Part shown: one piece after another, positions 1 through 6,812 of the stretch | How positions within the stretch are numbered: position 1 is the stretch's first letter | How the letters are laid out: every line of letters starts with the position of its first letter | Origin: a bacterium | Lineage (GTDB): Bacteria > UBA8248 | NCBI GenBank assembly: GCA_965199855.1 | Contig: OZ241326.1 | Coordinates: 2,367,486 to 2,431,485 of the forward strand | Direction: 5' to 3' | Length of the DNA stretch: 64,000 nucleotides | Program-made: the position numbers and the translations under genes | The notes under the pieces: generated by a model | The model's input: only the letters and a program-made list of their open reading frames with translations | Told to the model about the DNA's origin: nothing | Databases searched by the model: none

Positions 1-1888
1 AGGCCGCTACGCCGTATTCCTCCATCTCCTTTCGGGGAAGATAGACGCGCCCCCGCCCGGCGTCCTCCCAGACGTCCCGCAGGATATTCGTCATCTGGAG
101 CGCCCTCCCCAGAGATACGGCGTAATCCTTCGCGGACTCGGACGCCACCCCGAAGACGCCCAGACAGGCCAGCCCCACCGCCGAGGCCACCTTGTCGCAA
201 TAGGCTTCCAGTTCCCGGAAATCCTCGAATCTCCGCTCCTCGAGGTCCATCGCCACTCCGTCGCAAATCGCCTCGAAATGCTCCTGCGGCAAGTCGTATT
301 TCCGCGCCGCCCGGGCGAGCTCCGCGATGATCGGGTGGGCCGGACTCTCATCTCCCAAACGCGCCGCGGCATCCCTCCATTCGCGCAGCAGGATTCTTTT
401 TCCGGAAACCTCGCCCGGCTCGTCGGCGATGTCGTCGGCCATGCGGCAATAGGCGTAGATCGCGATGATGGCGCGCCTTTTCTCCGCCGGCAGGGTGAAA
501 AAGGAGAGGTAGAAATTCGAGCGGCTCTGGCGAACGAGCCAGAGGCAATATCTGCGGTTCAGCTCCTCTTCCGCGCGAGCGTCCACGAGAGATTCGAGCC
601 GATGAATCGGGCGAAACGCGGCGAGAAACGACTTGGCCTTGTCCCGCCTGTTCAGCTTCGGCGAACCGGCGCAGACGTTCCACTCCTCGCGGGAAATCGC
701 ATCGAGCGCCGCCGCGCCGCCCCGCCAGATCGCCCGAAACTCGCGGCCCGACCTGCCGCGAATCCTGCGAAAAAGGGGCAGGCCCTCCCGGAAGTGGCGC
801 TTCGTTCTGTTGATGTGATGCACGAGAAGGGCGCGCAGCTGGGGCGTCGCCGCATCCTTCAGCAAATCATCGTCGGACACGCCGAACTTCCTCATGTCGT
901 CCTGGGGCATATAGATGAGGTTCCGCTCGGCGTTTTCCCTGATATCCTGCAAATGGTTCGCAATCTGCAGGCCCGTGCATATCGCGTCCGACGCGCGAAA
1001 GGCGGCCGCGCCGCGCGCGCCGTGCAACATGAGATAAATCCGCCCGACGGGGTGCGCGGAGCGGCGGCAATAGTCGATCAGCGCCTCGTAGTCCGGATAC
1101 CTGGATACCGTGACGTCCTGCCGAAAGGCGGAGAGCAGATCCTGAAAAGGCCGCAGGGGAAGATCGAACAGGCGAATCGTATGGGAAAGCGCCGCGAAAA
1201 CGTCCCTCTTCGCCCCTCCTCCCTTGGCCTCGACGAGCTCTTCCTCCCATTCGTCGAGACGGGCGAGCCGCTCGGCCGGAGGCGCGGCCGCATCTGATAT
1301 GTCGTCCGTGCTTCTGCAAAACGCATAGACCGCGAGGATGTGCGGCCTCAGCTTCGGCGGCAGCAGCCGTGAAGCGACAGGGAAATTCTCGGGGTGGGCG
1401 TCCACGATTCTCCGACATGCGTCATAGGCGGCGCCTGCGTCTTCCCGATCGCTTTTTCCGTTTTTTCCCGAACCGGGTATCTCCTCGCCTCGTCTCAGAG
1501 ACTCTATCAGGGGCGCGTCGGCCGGCAGAAAATCGAAATCCCCCAGCGCGAAAGGATGCGCCCATTCATGTCCGCTCACCCCCAGATTCCTCGCCGTCCC
1601 GCTCTTCCACTCGCAGTCATAGAAGCGGAGGTGGACGGCGCGGTCGGGGTAACGATGATGCGTCTTCCAGCGAAGACGCCCGACGCGGGCCTCGATGCCG
1701 AGCTCCTCGCAAATCTCCCGCCGCAGCGCCTCCCGGGGGTTCTCGCCGGGTTCCACCTTTCCGCCGGGAAACTCCCAGAGGCCGGGCATCTGTCCGCCCT
1801 GCGGGCGGCGGCAGACGAGAACGCGCTCCTCGCGCCAGACGATTCCGGCGACGACGCTAAGCTCCAAAGCGGCGGCTTCTTCTTTCAT
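1..1888 (-). CDS. NUDIX (MutT-like) hydrolase fused in frame to HpnC-like hydroxysqualene synthase and HpnD-like presqualene-diphosphate synthase; partial, 3' end beyond the window start
   Basis: Hand translation of the minus strand starts at ATG 1888-1886 in a TGAATG overlap with the upstream gene. The frame is not in the ORF track. It begins MKEEAAALELSVVAGIVWREERVLVCRRPQGGQMPGLWEFPGGKVEPGENPREALRREICEELGIE, a perfect Nudix box Gx5Ex7REUxEExGU. A linker IPGSGKNGKSDREDAG follows, then the HpnC signature ENFPVASRLLPPKLRPHILAVYAFCRSTDDISD ... LQIANHLQDIRENAERNLIYMPQDDMRKFGV. With no stop it continues into the HpnD signature RSNFYLSFFTLPAEKRRAIIAIYAYCRMADDIADE ... LQMTNILRDVWEDAGRGRVYLP. Codon phase (tops congruent 1 mod 3) was verified at 1888, 1519, 1441, 973, 778, 718 and 478. 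Confidence 0.8.
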   Translation of the reverse strand, partial: MKEEAAALELSVVAGIVWREERVLVCRRPQGGQMPGLWEFPGGKVEPGENPREALRREICEELGIEARVGRLRWKTHHRYPDRAVHLRFYDCEWKSGTARNLGVSGHEWAHPFALGDFDFLPADAPLIESLRRGEEIPGSGKNGKSDREDAGAAYDACRRIVDAHPENFPVASRLLPPKLRPHILAVYAFCRSTDDISDAAAPPAERLARLDEWEEELVEAKGGGAKRDVFAALSHTIRLFDLPLRPFQDLLSAFRQDVTVSRYPDYEALIDYCRRSAHPVGRIYLMLHGARGAAAFRASDAICTGLQIANHLQDIRENAERNLIYMPQDDMRKFGVSDDDLLKDAATPQLRALLVHHINRTKRHFREGLPLFRRIRGRSGREFRAIWRGGAAALDAISREEWNVCAGSPKLNRRDKAKSFLAAFRPIHRLESLVDARAEEELNRRYCLWLVRQSRSNFYLSFFTLPAEKRRAIIAIYAYCRMADDIADEPGEVSGKRILLREWRDAAARLGDESPAHPIIAELARAARKYDLPQEHFEAICDGVAMDLEERRFEDFRELEAYCDKVASAVGLACLGVFGVASESAKDYAVSLGRALQMTNILRDVWEDAGRGRVYLPRKEMEEYGVAA

Positions 1889-2716
1889 TCAGGCGCCTCC
1901 CGCCTCCTTCCGCGCGGCCCCCTCCTCCGCGCGCTTCGACAATCGCGCCAGCGTGCTGGAGAACACGACCGGCTCCGCCCGGGGCAGGGCTTCGGCCAGC
2001 GCCTTTTCATTCTCGAAGCGGGCGCCGGGGATGATCCATCCGGGCGTTTGCAGCTCCACCGAGCCCATGGAAAACGGCCATGGGGAGATTTCCAGATCGT
2101 TCGCGCCCGAGGTTCTCACCTTCAGGCCGCCCTGCGTCAGCGGGTGGACGGCGTCGTCGGGCGGGGTGATCTCGGGCGCGCGGCACGCCAGCAGGGAGAG
2201 CGTGTCGCAGGCCCTGAGCAGCGCCGCGCCGCTCTCAATCGAGTCCCTGGACTCCGGCTCGATGCGGGCGTCGAGCGTCTCGCGCCGCTTCGCCTCGGCG
2301 TGAATGAAGCCGCTCAGCAGCCTGGAGACCTCCTGGGGCGCGCCCCGCCTGCCTCCGGCGGCGAGCGAGGCGAAATGGACGCTGACCAGATAGCCGGAAA
2401 ACGGATGGAAGGACGCGCATGAATCAATGCCCTCCGCCCATATTTTCACGGCCTCATCCGCCGTGACCCCGAAAAAGCTGCATGGCAGACTCGTCACGTC
2501 GTCCCATTTCGGCGTAGCGTCCGAGCGGCACCATCCCACGTCGTGGTTGTCCACGGCGAAGAGAACTTTCTCCCTGGCCCCGGCGGGCGGGGCGGGGAGC
2601 GACTCGATGCCCGTCCACTTTCGCGCGATCGTCCCCGCCGCCCTGGCGTGATCATGCTGGGAAATGAGGCAAACGTCATTCTCTCTCGGACGAACTATCA
2701 TGCGGCGCACCTGCAA
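1889..2716 (-). CDS. conserved hypothetical protein (possibly DUF3891-like), translationally coupled to the downstream NUDIX-HpnCD gene
   Basis: 275-aa ORF with mixed composition (MIVRPRENDVCLISQHDHARAAGTIARKW...). Its stop codon overlaps the start of the next gene (TGAATG). The overlapping plus-strand ORFs are antisense to real minus-strand genes. Confidence 0.5.
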   Translation of the reverse strand: MQVRRMIVRPRENDVCLISQHDHARAAGTIARKWTGIESLPAPPAGAREKVLFAVDNHDVGWCRSDATPKWDDVTSLPCSFFGVTADEAVKIWAEGIDSCASFHPFSGYLVSVHFASLAAGGRRGAPQEVSRLLSGFIHAEAKRRETLDARIEPESRDSIESGAALLRACDTLSLLACRAPEITPPDDAVHPLTQGGLKVRTSGANDLEISPWPFSMGSVELQTPGWIIPGARFENEKALAEALPRAEPVVFSSTLARLSKRAEEGAARKEAGGA

Positions 2717-2938
2717 ACGCGGCGGCTAGGACGCGGACGGCCTGCCGGCTTCCCCGTCGCGGGGAACTCCGTCGCATTGTAGGCGCCCGGGGAAAATCCG
2801 GCAACCGCCATGGCGTCCGAGAAGGGAACGGCGCGCGAGCCGGGCGTCCACTTGAAGGGACGCATGAAAAATACGTAACCTTGCCGGAAGGCAACGCGCG
2901 AGCCCGAACTCCCGAGAAGAGGAAGCCGCAAGCCGACT

Positions 2939-4375
2939 ATGAGCGAGAAGAACTCCCCGCAAGACCCCGGTTCGGTCGGCCTGACGAGGACGCGGACGAT
3001 AACGCTGCCCGATCCGTTCAGGACGGATTCGGGCGAAACGCTGCCCGAAGTCCGCGTCGCCTACGAGACATACGGCGAGCTCTCCCCCGGCGGTGACAAC
3101 GCCGTCCTCGTCATCCACGCCTTGACGGGCGACGCGCACGCGGCGGGCTTCCACAGCGAGGCTGATCCGCGCCCCGGCTGGTGGGATCCGATGATCGGCC
3201 CCGGCAAGGCCATCGACACCGAAAAATACTTCGTCGTCTCCTCCAACAACCTGGGGGGATGCGCGGGCACGACGGGGCCCGGCTCCATAAATCCCGCCAC
3301 GGGGAAGCCCTACAACATGCGCTTCCCCGTCATCACGGTGGAGGACACGGTTCGAGCGCACAGGCTGCTCCTCGAGCGCCTGGGGGTAAAGCGCCTCAGG
3401 ACGGTCATCGGCGGCTCCCTCGCCGGGATGCAGACCCTGGAGTGGGGTCTGCGCTACGGGGACTTCTGCGACTCCGTCATCCCGGTCGCGGCCGCCGCCC
3501 GCCTGGATCCCATGGGAATCGCGTGGGGCAAAATCGCCCGCAGGGCCATTACGGCGGACGCCGCCTGGAAAAGCGGCGACTACGCCCCCGGCCAGGGGCC
3601 GCGCAAGGGCCTGAGCGCGGCGCGGATGCTGGCCCACGTCACCTACCTGAGCCGGGGAATCATGTGGGAGAAATTCGGGCGCGAGACGCGGGACAAGGAC
3701 GCGATGCTGGCGGACATCGCCTCCCGCTTCGAGGTGGAGAGCTATCTCGACCACCAGGGCGAGAAATTCGTCGATCGATTCGACGCCAACTCGTATCTGT
3801 ATATCTCCCGCATGATGGACCTCTACGACGCCTCGCTGGGCTTCGAGAGCCTGGAAGCCTCCCTCTCCCGCCTGAGCGCCAAGTGCATGCTCGTGTGCTT
3901 CATCTCCGACTGGCTCTTCCCGCCGGAGAGAAGCATTGAGATGGCCGAGGCGCTGCGAAAGCTCGGGCGTGAGGTGGAGCTGCACACCGTGGAATCCACC
4001 TACGGTCACGACGCCTTTCTGGTGCAATACGACAAGCTCACCGAGATCGTCGGCGGCTTTCTGGAAAGGCTCGAAAGGGGCGGGGCGATCGGCATCGACG
4101 CGACCCCCGTCCCCCCGGGGTGCCGCCGCCTCGTTCTCTCTTTTCCCGGCGACTTGGCGGACAAACCCGTTTTGTGGGAACTCGGCGAGAGATACTCGTT
4201 TTCCGTCAACGTGGCGAGAAGCGAGCTCGACGCCCGCTCGGGCTGGCAGGTATGCGAATTCCAAGGAGACGCGGAGGAAATCGCGCGCGCGGCGGCGGAA
4301 CTCAGAAGCATGGGCGTCTGGGTCGATGCGGGAGGGCACGACGCCATCGACCACGATCGCGCCGAAGTGGTATAA
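2939..4375 (+). CDS. metX: homoserine O-acetyltransferase MetX with a ~90-aa C-terminal extension domain
   Basis: VAYETYGELSPGGDNAVLVIHALTGDAHAAG...GGSLAGMQTLEW is the classic MetX alpha/beta-hydrolase core. At 478 aa it exceeds the usual ~370-400 aa; the extra tail is ...LVLSFPGDLADKPVLWELGERYSFSVNVARSEL... Confidence 0.85.
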   Translation: MSEKNSPQDPGSVGLTRTRTITLPDPFRTDSGETLPEVRVAYETYGELSPGGDNAVLVIHALTGDAHAAGFHSEADPRPGWWDPMIGPGKAIDTEKYFVVSSNNLGGCAGTTGPGSINPATGKPYNMRFPVITVEDTVRAHRLLLERLGVKRLRTVIGGSLAGMQTLEWGLRYGDFCDSVIPVAAAARLDPMGIAWGKIARRAITADAAWKSGDYAPGQGPRKGLSAARMLAHVTYLSRGIMWEKFGRETRDKDAMLADIASRFEVESYLDHQGEKFVDRFDANSYLYISRMMDLYDASLGFESLEASLSRLSAKCMLVCFISDWLFPPERSIEMAEALRKLGREVELHTVESTYGHDAFLVQYDKLTEIVGGFLERLERGGAIGIDATPVPPGCRRLVLSFPGDLADKPVLWELGERYSFSVNVARSELDARSGWQVCEFQGDAEEIARAAAELRSMGVWVDAGGHDAIDHDRAEVV

Positions 4376-4450
4376 ATCAGGGAGCGCGGCCCGGAACATA
4401 AAGATCGCTTTCTTTTCTCAAACCCGCAAACACAAGACGGAGACGATCCG

Positions 4451-5219: not shown

Positions 5220-6812
5220 ATGGCGCAATTCGACGGCATCATCATCGGCGCGGGCCACAACGGCCTGGTGTGCGCGGCCTATCTCGCGCGGGCGGGGCTG
5301 AAGGTCGCCGTCCTCGAAAACGAACCCGAAATCGGCGGCGGATCAAGCACGAAGGAATTTCTCCTGCCAGGCTACCGCTCGAACATGCACGCGAATTTCT
5401 TCATCGGCCTCGACGATTTTCCCATCGTCAAGGATTTGGAGCTGAACAAACACGGCTTCAGGTGGCTTACGCCGGACGCCCAGCACGCCGCGCTCTATCG
5501 GGACGGCACGGCGATTCTCCTCCATCGGGATCCGGAGAAAAGCGCCGCTTCCATCTCGAAATTCTCCCGAAAGGACGCTGAATCCTACGTCTATCTTCAC
5601 AGGCGATTCGCCGTGGAGCTCGCCCCCCTCATGCGCAGCTTCCTGTTTCATCCGCCGCTGCCTCCGGGAGAAATCGCCGAGCGGATGGAGAGCGAAGCGG
5701 GTCGGGAGGTTCTGGGCTTCGCGAAGACGTCCATCTTCGAGGCTATCGAATCCCACTTCGAGCATCCCAAGATGCGCGCGCTTTTCTTCCTCTTCTCCCA
5801 CGCCATCACGGTGGAGGACGCGCCGGGCACGGGCATTTTTCTCCCGAGTCTGTTCTCCACCCACACGACGCTCGGCCTTCCGGTGGGAGGCGCCCTCCAG
5901 TTGCCGCTGGCGCTCGAGCGCATCATCCTCCAGAATGGCGGCGTCGTCCTCAGAAACAGCCGCGTCCGCGAAGTGACGCGCGAAGCCGGCCGCGCGGCGG
6001 GCGTCGCGCTCGAAAACGGAGAGAGGATGACGGCGGGGCGGTTCGTCGCCTCCAGCCTCAACGCGCCGGCGTCCATCCGGATGGCGGGAGAGGACGCCTT
6101 CCCCGACGAGGTGAACGAGAAGGCGCGAAACTGGGACTGGGGCTTCCACTCCCTCAGCACGCTGCATCTCGCCCTGGCCGAGCCTCCGAAATACGCGGCG
6201 GAGGACTTCGACCCGGACGTGGTCCGCGCCTACAACGTCATCTTCGGCGCGGATTCGGGCGAGGAGATGGCCGAAAACGCGCAGGAGCGCAAGAGCGGCG
6301 CCCTGCCCTCGCGCCCTATGGGCAACGGCGCGTGCAACAGCCGGCACGACCCTTCCTACGCGCCCGCCGACGGGCACGTCGCCTTCTGGTGGCCGGGCGC
6401 GCCCTACGACCTCAGGGACGGCGGCCCCGAAAAATGGGATGAGATAAAGGAGGAATACGCCGAGCGTCTGGTGGGCGCGTGGCGAGGCTACGCCCCGAAC
6501 CTCACGCCCGGGAACATTCGCGCGGCGAAGCTCTACACCCCGCTCGACGTGGAGCGCGGGAACGGGAACATGGTGCGCGGCGGCGTGCGCATGGGCGCCT
6601 ATATTCCCGAGCAGCTGGGCGTCAACAGGCCCCATCCCCTGCTCTCCGGCATGAGGACGCCGCTGGAAGGGTTTTATCTGTGCAGTTCGAGCTGCCAGGG
6701 GGGCGGCCTGAACGGAGCGCCCGGCTACAACGCGGCGGGCGTCATCGCGGACGACCAGGGCGTGGAGAAGTGGTGGGAGCCGCTGCCCGCGCCCGCGTCG
6801 CCCGCGCTCTAG
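5220..6812 (+). CDS. CrtI/phytoene-desaturase-family FAD-dependent oxidoreductase
   Basis: N-terminal Rossmann fold MAQFDGIIIGAGHNGLVCAAYLARAGLKVAVLE; 530 aa with amine-oxidase/CrtI-like architecture. Confidence 0.75.
   Translation: MAQFDGIIIGAGHNGLVCAAYLARAGLKVAVLENEPEIGGGSSTKEFLLPGYRSNMHANFFIGLDDFPIVKDLELNKHGFRWLTPDAQHAALYRDGTAILLHRDPEKSAASISKFSRKDAESYVYLHRRFAVELAPLMRSFLFHPPLPPGEIAERMESEAGREVLGFAKTSIFEAIESHFEHPKMRALFFLFSHAITVEDAPGTGIFLPSLFSTHTTLGLPVGGALQLPLALERIILQNGGVVLRNSRVREVTREAGRAAGVALENGERMTAGRFVASSLNAPASIRMAGEDAFPDEVNEKARNWDWGFHSLSTLHLALAEPPKYAAEDFDPDVVRAYNVIFGADSGEEMAENAQERKSGALPSRPMGNGACNSRHDPSYAPADGHVAFWWPGAPYDLRDGGPEKWDEIKEEYAERLVGAWRGYAPNLTPGNIRAAKLYTPLDVERGNGNMVRGGVRMGAYIPEQLGVNRPHPLLSGMRTPLEGFYLCSSSCQGGGLNGAPGYNAAGVIADDQGVEKWWEPLPAPASPAL

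Follow-up and report, generated by a model that had tools for sequence, protein, structure and literature searches.

The window examined here, by which we mean the whole stretch of 64,000 nucleotides of contig OZ241326.1, opens on its minus strand with most of a single gene that encodes an N-terminal Nudix hydrolase domain, a domain of the hydroxysqualene synthase type (HpnC) and a domain of the presqualene diphosphate synthase type (HpnD) on one polypeptide. The initial annotation, translated by hand, had read an open frame through all three domains, and computed translation of the minus strand bears this out: the frame starts at the ATG at 1888–1886, runs for 629 codons without a stop (1..1888) and has its 3' end beyond the start of the window. 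Pfam and NCBIfam agree on the three domains and on their order. The gene is indeed missing from the list of open reading frames (ORFs), as had been pointed out, because the frame exits the window at its start and the program that lists ORFs by design drops those that overrun an end. The Nudix–HpnC–HpnD arrangement is a previously undescribed architecture that is confined to one uncultured lineage; it is present in public databases but is under-annotated, and the plain label 'squalene synthase HpnC' that such proteins bear there does not cover the whole architecture.

The fusion gene and its domain anatomy

A full-length copy of the protein, P0001 (718 aa), is 99 % identical to the window copy and is found on three metagenome contigs (L052–L054). 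When the same fusion was looked for in other genomes, as the initial annotation had proposed, a scan of one genome per species returned 23 further genomes (L001–L023) in which a protein with 49–85 % identity has this architecture. The record titles give Nitrospinota, Nitrospinaceae, Candidatus Tectomicrobia or simply 'bacterium', and the entries are metagenome-assembled genomes (MAGs), several of them complete chromosomes. In all 23 the gene is one frame without interruption over about 719–734 codons, and the strict Nudix box is present in all except the two most distant, which depart from it at its last Gly only. Apparent splits in two further contigs were traced to small sequence differences from near relatives: the split in L056 (1581–3742) consists of two single-base homopolymer insertions relative to the intact and 97.8 %-identical L002, and that in L058 (1755–3916) of one gap relative to the intact and 99.6 %-identical L007. 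Both are long-read contigs, and the name of L056 indicates 3x coverage. In three pairwise comparisons, the ratio of nonsynonymous to synonymous substitutions (dN/dS, Nei–Gojobori method) lies at 0.07–0.24 for every domain; the Nudix, HpnC and HpnD domains are under purifying selection, and all three are therefore functional. The tri-domain fusion is confirmed as a genuine gene and is not a sequencing artifact.

A Pfam scan of the window frame places NUDIX/NUDIX_4 at aa 13–129 and finds two SQS_PSY stretches, with a total E-value of 2.8e-129. For scoring against NCBIfam, the full-length P0001 was cut into three parts and each part was scanned alone. The isolated HpnC domain reaches 301.3 bits with TIGR03464 (cut-off 250.45) against just 189 with the HpnD model on the same segment, and its nearest solved structure is 4HD1 ('squalene synthase HpnC', E = 2.5e-55). 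The complete HpnD domain of P0001 scores 286.9 bits with TIGR03465 (cut-off 278.6), and the truncated HpnD of the window scores 224 bits over 178 of the 267 model positions. Both Asp-rich motifs of HpnD, DDIAD (aa 485–489) and RDVWED (aa 604–609), are intact and are invariant across the family. By family assignment, HpnD would convert two molecules of farnesyl diphosphate (FPP) to presqualene diphosphate and HpnC would convert presqualene diphosphate to hydroxysqualene.

The segments of the protein differ in how well they are conserved. Mean column conservation over 39 full-length family members is 0.79 for the Nudix domain, 0.53 for the linker that joins it to HpnC (linker 1), 0.80 for HpnC, 0.70 for the linker between HpnC and HpnD (linker 2) and 0.74 for HpnD, and the length of linker 1 varies among family members. 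An AlphaFold2 model of the fusion, built with 28 sequences, has a mean predicted local distance difference test score (pLDDT) of 88 and a predicted template modeling score of 0.76. Residues 136–149, within linker 1, have a pLDDT below 50 and are predicted to be disordered, and the HpnC–HpnD junction is modeled confidently. In this model the Nudix domain seems to hang on a flexible linker of ~20 residues and not to be docked. The features of the locus are collected in Table 1.

Table 1. Positions in the window of the fusion gene, its parts and the adjoining upstream gene.
Feature	Position	Strand	Description
Nudix–HpnC–HpnD fusion gene	1..1888	-	629 of 718 codons present; unbroken frame with Pfam and NCBIfam domain calls
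Nudix hydrolase domain, MutT/NudG subfamily	1493..1861	-	aa 10–132; NUDIX_4 76.9 bits, NUDIX 70.6 bits
Nudix box GKVEPGENPREALRREICEELGI	1694..1762	-	aa 43–65; exact fit to GX5EX7REUXEEXGU
Linker 1, Nudix to HpnC	1424..1492	-	aa 133–155; segment of lowest conservation
HpnC (hydroxysqualene synthase-type) domain	614..1423	-	aa 156–425; TIGR03464, structure match 4HD1
HpnC second Asp-rich motif, D-I-R-E-N	932..946	-	Asn319 codon AAC at 934–932
Linker 2, HpnC to HpnD	539..613	-	aa 426–450; conserved, gap-free, confidently modeled
HpnD (presqualene diphosphate synthase-type) domain, truncated	2..538	-	aa 451–629; 89 aa beyond the window
Ribosome-binding site GGAGG	1896..1900	-	7 nt 5' of ATG 1888, within the end of the DUF3891 gene; read from the sequence
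DUF3891 protein, upstream operon partner	1889..2701	-	270 aa; PF13030 E = 3e-39; TGA abuts the fusion ATG

Neighborhood, gene states and distribution

The TGA of the DUF3891 gene, at 1891–1889, directly abuts the start of the fusion frame. DUF3891 lies immediately 5' of the Nudix segment in 23 of 23 genomes, in L052–L054 and L056, and also in L055, in which hpnC, hpnD and hpnE are missing. The surrounding synteny is shared across the lineage, with genes for a CrtO-like oxidoreductase, DsbA and MetX on one strand and, divergent from them, DUF3891 followed by the fusion.

Downstream of DUF3891, four gene states were found. In the first, seen in the Nitrospinota MAG L057 (GCA_046759145.1; 46 % identity), the Nudix domain has a gene of its own, of 141 aa (77–502), which overlaps by GTGA a 614-aa hpnCD gene (499–2343), and hpnE comes next; L057 represents either a pre-fusion state or a one-base assembly error. 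In the second (L002–L023 and L056), the fusion is followed by a 451-aa hpnE that starts 4 nt later; one of these hpnE-bearing chromosomes is OY843592.1. In the third, to which the window, L001 and L052–L054 belong, the fusion has no adjoining hpnE and a cold-shock gene is directly next; L001 is the complete chromosome OZ251456.1. In the fourth, L055 (ENA ERZ25068762 ctg152746, a 2.9 Mb contig), the synteny is identical and DUF3891 is accompanied by a stand-alone Nudix gene only. This gene (6001–6414) encodes 137 aa, is 73 % identical and terminates inside the former linker 1, and no remnant of hpnC, hpnD or hpnE was found at the locus. L055 falls within the fusion clade in each of three neighbor-joining trees (MetX, DUF3891 and Nudix), and its outgroups, L021 and L022, are both fusion carriers (hpnE is complete in L021 and is cut by the contig end in L022). 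The Nudix-alone state is therefore a secondary loss. The stand-alone Nudix gene of L055 has a dN/dS of 0.12–0.20, which indicates purifying selection. Taken together, the gene orders are best read as a pairing in which the constant partner of the Nudix domain is DUF3891 and not HpnCD.

HpnE of L056 and SHC of L059 served as tblastn queries against the window and all loci. No hpnE was detected within ±10 kb of the fusion in L001 and L052–L054, nor anywhere in the 64 kb window, and shc was found neither in the window nor at any fusion locus. The hopanoid setting that the initial annotation had given the gene is accordingly unsupported locally.

The same annotation had called a single polypeptide with HpnC, HpnD and Nudix domains unusual. 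This does not hold for the HpnC–HpnD part, which Sinninghe Damsté et al. reported in 2017 (PMC5462960) from Acidobacteria subdivision 2, some Actinobacteria and Alphaproteobacteria and which, in Nudix-less form, accounts for 58 of the best 120 database clusters. It does hold for the Nudix addition, which is undescribed and restricted to one lineage: the 46 Nudix–HpnC–HpnD clusters among the best 120 are all one family, and an exhaustive search for Nudix plus HpnC among 1.84 billion representatives at 50 % identity gave just 2 that span both domains. No ORF with a Nudix box was found within ±10 kb of hpnC or hpnD in 28 loci from other phyla, no independent Nudix–HpnC fusion or neighborhood in other taxa emerged from the database and locus searches, and no paper in the literature searched relevantly links Nudix with HpnC, HpnD, a squalene synthase fusion or hopanoids. 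Nudix-less HpnC–HpnD relatives at 40–46 % identity are located in shc–hpnCD–hpnE clusters, and the fusion of HpnC with HpnD is therefore older than the fusion with Nudix. HpnC also has other N-terminal partners, namely a PNP_UDP_1 phosphorylase-family domain (521 aa, P0343), a family-2 glycosyltransferase in an HpnC–HpnD protein (946 and 954 aa, P0330/P0083) and LytB (467 aa, P0394). Since these upstream partners are so varied, the fusion of hpnC to the preceding gene seems to be a recurrent accident of tight operons.

In their survey, Santana-Molina et al. 2020 report Sqs, and in no case HpnCDE, for Nitrospina-type bacteria. Six of the genomes titled Nitrospinota or Nitrospinaceae (L010, L011, L013–L015 and L022) carry hpnCD(E), in contrast to that survey, which suggests either that a different lineage stands under the same label or that the survey was incomplete.

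Several other genes of the window were considered. A 530-aa FAD oxidoreductase (5220–6812, plus strand) was tried as a candidate HpnE and was rejected, as the HpnE model gives 29 bits over the dinucleotide-binding motif alone. It is a distant member of the CrtO/CrtI family (166 bits, cut-off 1000). Its identity across the lineage is 85–93 %, above that of its neighbors, and it is also present in the genomes that bear hpnE and in L055. An ORF of 557 aa (2726–4399, minus strand) was rejected as a gene because it has no Pfam match and the real gene is metX on the plus strand. MetX (2939–4375, plus strand), a homoserine O-acetyltransferase, carries about 100 additional aa at its C-terminus, annotated as an NIL domain (PF09383); this MetX–NIL fusion is unusual and is conserved across the lineage. 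The G+C-rich window yields many long spurious antisense ORFs, so that ORF length alone is no evidence of a gene here. Ten long ORFs from other parts of the window matched only unrelated families in Pfam.

Nudix function, altered HpnC and the origin of the fusion

The Nudix domain matches PF00293 with 70.6 bits (cut-off 21.1), its box residues E49, R57, E58, E61 and E62 are invariant across 28 family members, and its dN/dS is 0.07–0.21 in pairwise comparisons. The initial annotation had described a canonical MutT Nudix box. The box fits the consensus exactly, but the name MutT is too strong for the domain. All NCBIfam matches are to MutT/NudG-type models and every score lies under the equivalog cut-off: 88.8 bits against 97.9 for TIGR00586 and 86.8 against 148 for PRK10776, both models of the MutT 8-oxo-dGTP diphosphatase, and 92.4 against 156 for the NudG/Orf135 model PRK10546. 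The top match, to the PRK08999-type model NF006530, reaches 120 bits against a cut-off of 245 and covers the N-terminal 132 of 315 model positions.

The nearest solved relatives of the domain are 3EES (BdRppH of Bdellovibrio), 2RRK (NudG/Orf135 of E. coli, E = 2.4e-21) and 1MUT (MutT). When the domain is aligned with E. coli MutT by HMMER, the equivalents of R23, E34, F35, K39, D77 and R78 are kept, the H28 position is His in most family members and Gln in the window copy, and the position of Asn119 is taken by Asp124 (within 'FLPAD'), which is invariant in the family and corresponds to the 'PAD' of NudG. In the MutT/Orf135 literature these positions have roles in nucleotide binding, and Asn119 of MutT reads the 8-oxoguanine base. 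The nearest stand-alone homologues, at 50 % identity or less, are all small proteins labeled at source as MutT or 8-oxo-dGTP diphosphatase. A search of the PDB with the Nudix domain matched NudI and NudJ weakly (E from about 1e-8 to 1e-3) and chiefly in the region of the Nudix box, and listed no chain named as a prenyl-diphosphate hydrolase. We know of no demonstrated prenyl-diphosphate activity for the MutT/NudG subgroup. Because the residues and the homologues are MutT/NudG-like, and because L055 retains the Nudix domain alone, the domain is best interpreted as an autonomous nucleotide-type pyrophosphohydrolase.

The explanation that we favor, with a probability of roughly 0.6, is that an ordinary fused HpnC–HpnD protein was joined to a MutT/NudG-type Nudix domain by read-through between operon neighbors, and that this domain is likely an autonomous (d)NTP hydrolase. 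The ancestral operon would have had the order DUF3891–nudix–hpnCD–hpnE with translationally coupled neighbors, and the Nudix gene most probably became joined to the gene that followed it, an already fused hpnCD, by read-through. The Nudix domain most likely hydrolyzes (deoxy)nucleoside triphosphates on its own, and the fusion would confer co-expression and not substrate channeling. An origin from operon neighbors is proposed because the DUF3891 stop codon abuts the ATG of the fusion, hpnE follows 4 nt downstream, the separate genes of L057 overlap by GTGA, and HpnC has been fused to other upstream partners. Autonomy of the Nudix domain is proposed because L055 keeps it alone under selection and because the linker is variable and predicted to be disordered.

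Several points weigh against this explanation. The fusion is intact down to about 49 % identity and the Nudix domain is as conserved as the synthase domains. The unfused Nudix gene of L057 comes from one MAG contig and may itself reflect a one-base error. No substrate class is assigned to the Nudix domain by family score, as it falls under every NCBIfam equivalog cut-off. Genes that are fused are related in function in the majority of cases, as reported by Yanai et al. 2001 (cited in PMC5462960). Finally, Nudix enzymes do act on prenyl diphosphates, since NudB, NudF, NudI and NudJ of E. coli hydrolyze dimethylallyl diphosphate (DMAPP) or isopentenyl diphosphate (IPP) (PMC12359138).

The HpnC domain of the sub-lineage to which the window belongs must be considered separately. 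Of the two Asp-rich, Mg-binding motifs expected in HpnC (DDxxD and QDxxxD), the second is altered in the window, where it reads QDIREN, with Asn319 in place of the last Asp. This position aligns with the last Asp of DxxxD in 4HD1 (HpnC), 5IYS (phytoene synthase) and 8IS6 (CrtM). Among 84 HpnC domains, fused or free and extending to about 35 % identity, Asn319 is confined to P0001 and P0002, which make up the window sub-lineage; Asp is present in 81 of the 82 others, and the lone exception, P0108, looks misaligned. The first motif (1295–1321, minus strand) retains D195, D196 and D199, but its flanks are changed, from RxADDxAD to RSTDDISD. The sub-lineage has T194 and S198, at positions where 82 of 82 and 80 of 82 other domains, respectively, have Ala. 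Sites that are otherwise invariant in the family are changed in the sub-lineage at 9 of 92 positions in HpnC versus 0 of 106 in Nudix plus HpnD (Fisher p = 8e-4). The changes in the HpnC motifs coincide with the loss of the adjoining hpnE (L001, L052–L054 and the window).

One alternative that these changes raise is that the squalene module of the sub-lineage is decaying or has been repurposed, with an HpnC that is dead or makes another product, and that the gene is kept for its Nudix domain, its HpnD domain or both. We regard this as possible, though on the unlikely side, and it is compatible with the favored explanation for the rest of the clade. The unique Asn319, the T194 and S198 that flank the first DD motif and the concentration of changes in HpnC are what it would predict, as are the absence of hpnE beside the fusion in this sub-lineage alone, given that hpnE follows in L002–L023 and L056, and the deletion of the whole module in the related L055. 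Decay is harder to reconcile with the constraint that persists, as dN/dS of HpnC between the two sub-lineage members is still 0.16, neither stops nor frameshifts have arisen after a dS of about 0.38, and the domain still scores above the TIGR03464 equivalog cut-off. In addition, hpnE may have relocated in the genome, and an Asp to Asn replacement can retain metal binding. Judged from sequence, the HpnC domain of the sub-lineage is altered and not abandoned. From the QDxxxN change together with the loss of hpnE, it follows that the product of this copy may not be squalene and that it may no longer feed the standard squalene pathway.

A second alternative, which develops the idea of the initial annotation that the fusion channels or proof-reads diphosphate intermediates, is that the Nudix domain hydrolyzes FPP or presqualene diphosphate to the monophosphate and acts as a flux valve, a detoxifier or a proof-reader. 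We consider this rather unlikely. The conservation of the fusion, the co-oriented and tight coupling of nudix with hpnCD and hpnE across the lineage and the invariance of the Nudix catalytic residues would all agree with it, as would the bacterial precedent on DMAPP and IPP noted above and the failure to reach the MutT and NudG cut-offs, which leaves the choice of substrate wide. However, L055 retains its Nudix gene under purifying selection after the deletion of hpnC, hpnD and hpnE, the tether is variable and disordered, the residues align with nucleotide-binding positions of MutT and NudG, all of the nearest stand-alone homologues are MutT-like, and the 28 other taxa show no linkage of Nudix with hpnC. 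It would also be futile, unless regulated, to hydrolyze the substrate of the fused partner. The separate genes of L057 are a further counter-indication, and the channeling and proof-reading proposal has no positive support.

We find it improbable that the hpnE-less protein of the sub-lineage has been rewired as a new three-step enzyme or, more broadly, that a MutT-type Nudix domain has been recruited to bacterial prenyl-diphosphate chemistry. If it had, HpnD would make presqualene diphosphate, and the remodeled HpnC site (QDxxxN, RSTDDISD), the Nudix domain or both would yield a product other than hydroxysqualene. Candidates would be presqualene monophosphate or alcohol, or dehydrosqualene, and the product might feed the conserved CrtO/CrtI-like oxidoreductase that is encoded three genes away. 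The weakest alternative, that nudix, hpnC and hpnD are separate genes and were merged into one frame by an error of assembly or sequencing, is hardly credible: split versions do occur in three contigs (L056, L058 and L057), but the first two are accounted for by the small indels described above, conservation at the protein level extends across the domain junctions, and the frame is unbroken in 26 independent assemblies, including complete chromosomes.

If it were true that the Nudix domain acts on farnesyl or presqualene diphosphate, the fusion would be the first built-in hydrolytic control of bacterial squalene synthesis and a component of use to terpenoid engineers. What was found points the other way, toward a clean natural example of coupled operon neighbors that fuse without necessarily sharing a pathway, and this is a caution for function prediction of the 'Rosetta-stone' type. 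Within the lineage the gene states already form a series for comparison, in which the genes are separate (L057), fused with hpnE (L002–L023), fused without hpnE and with an altered HpnC (the window sub-lineage) or reduced to Nudix alone (L055).

Comparison with known systems

The architecture can be compared with several known proteins. PRK08999-type proteins likewise begin with a MutT-like domain, which is joined there to an enzyme-like domain unrelated to it. The window protein has a different C-terminal partner, and its score with NF006530 is far under 245, so that it is no member of this group. MutT (1MUT), NudG/Orf135 (2RRK) and BdRppH (3EES) share with the window Nudix domain the NUDIX_4 fold family, a perfect box and the WEFPGGK and PDR motifs, and its 'PAD' is as in NudG. 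The window domain differs in that it scores under the MutT and NudG cut-offs, has Asp in the position of MutT Asn119 and is fused to isoprenoid synthases. Prenyl-diphosphate Nudix enzymes (NudB, NudF, NudI, NudJ and the plant enzyme NUDX1, which reportedly acts on geranyl diphosphate or FPP) belong to the same superfamily and share the same chemistry of diphosphate-ester cleavage, and they would provide the model for the mechanism if the second alternative were correct, whereas the closest relatives of the window Nudix domain are all nucleotide enzymes.

The synthase half of the protein belongs with the three-enzyme route to squalene through HpnC, HpnD and HpnE, which is credited to Pan et al. 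2015 in the papers that cite it (PMC12583986, PMC5462960). Each synthase domain scores above the equivalog cut-off of its own family model, and the nearest structure is 4HD1. The window protein departs from that route in that one polypeptide carries both domains, the locus has no hpnE and the second motif of HpnC ends in Asn. The closest published counterpart is the fused HpnCD (PMC5462960), which like the window protein carries HpnC and then HpnD on one polypeptide, with hpnE next in most relatives. Compared with it, the window gene lies outside an shc/hopanoid cluster and belongs to a sub-lineage that has no adjoining hpnE and has altered HpnC motifs, and its product adds an N-terminal Nudix domain of about 135 aa together with a linker.

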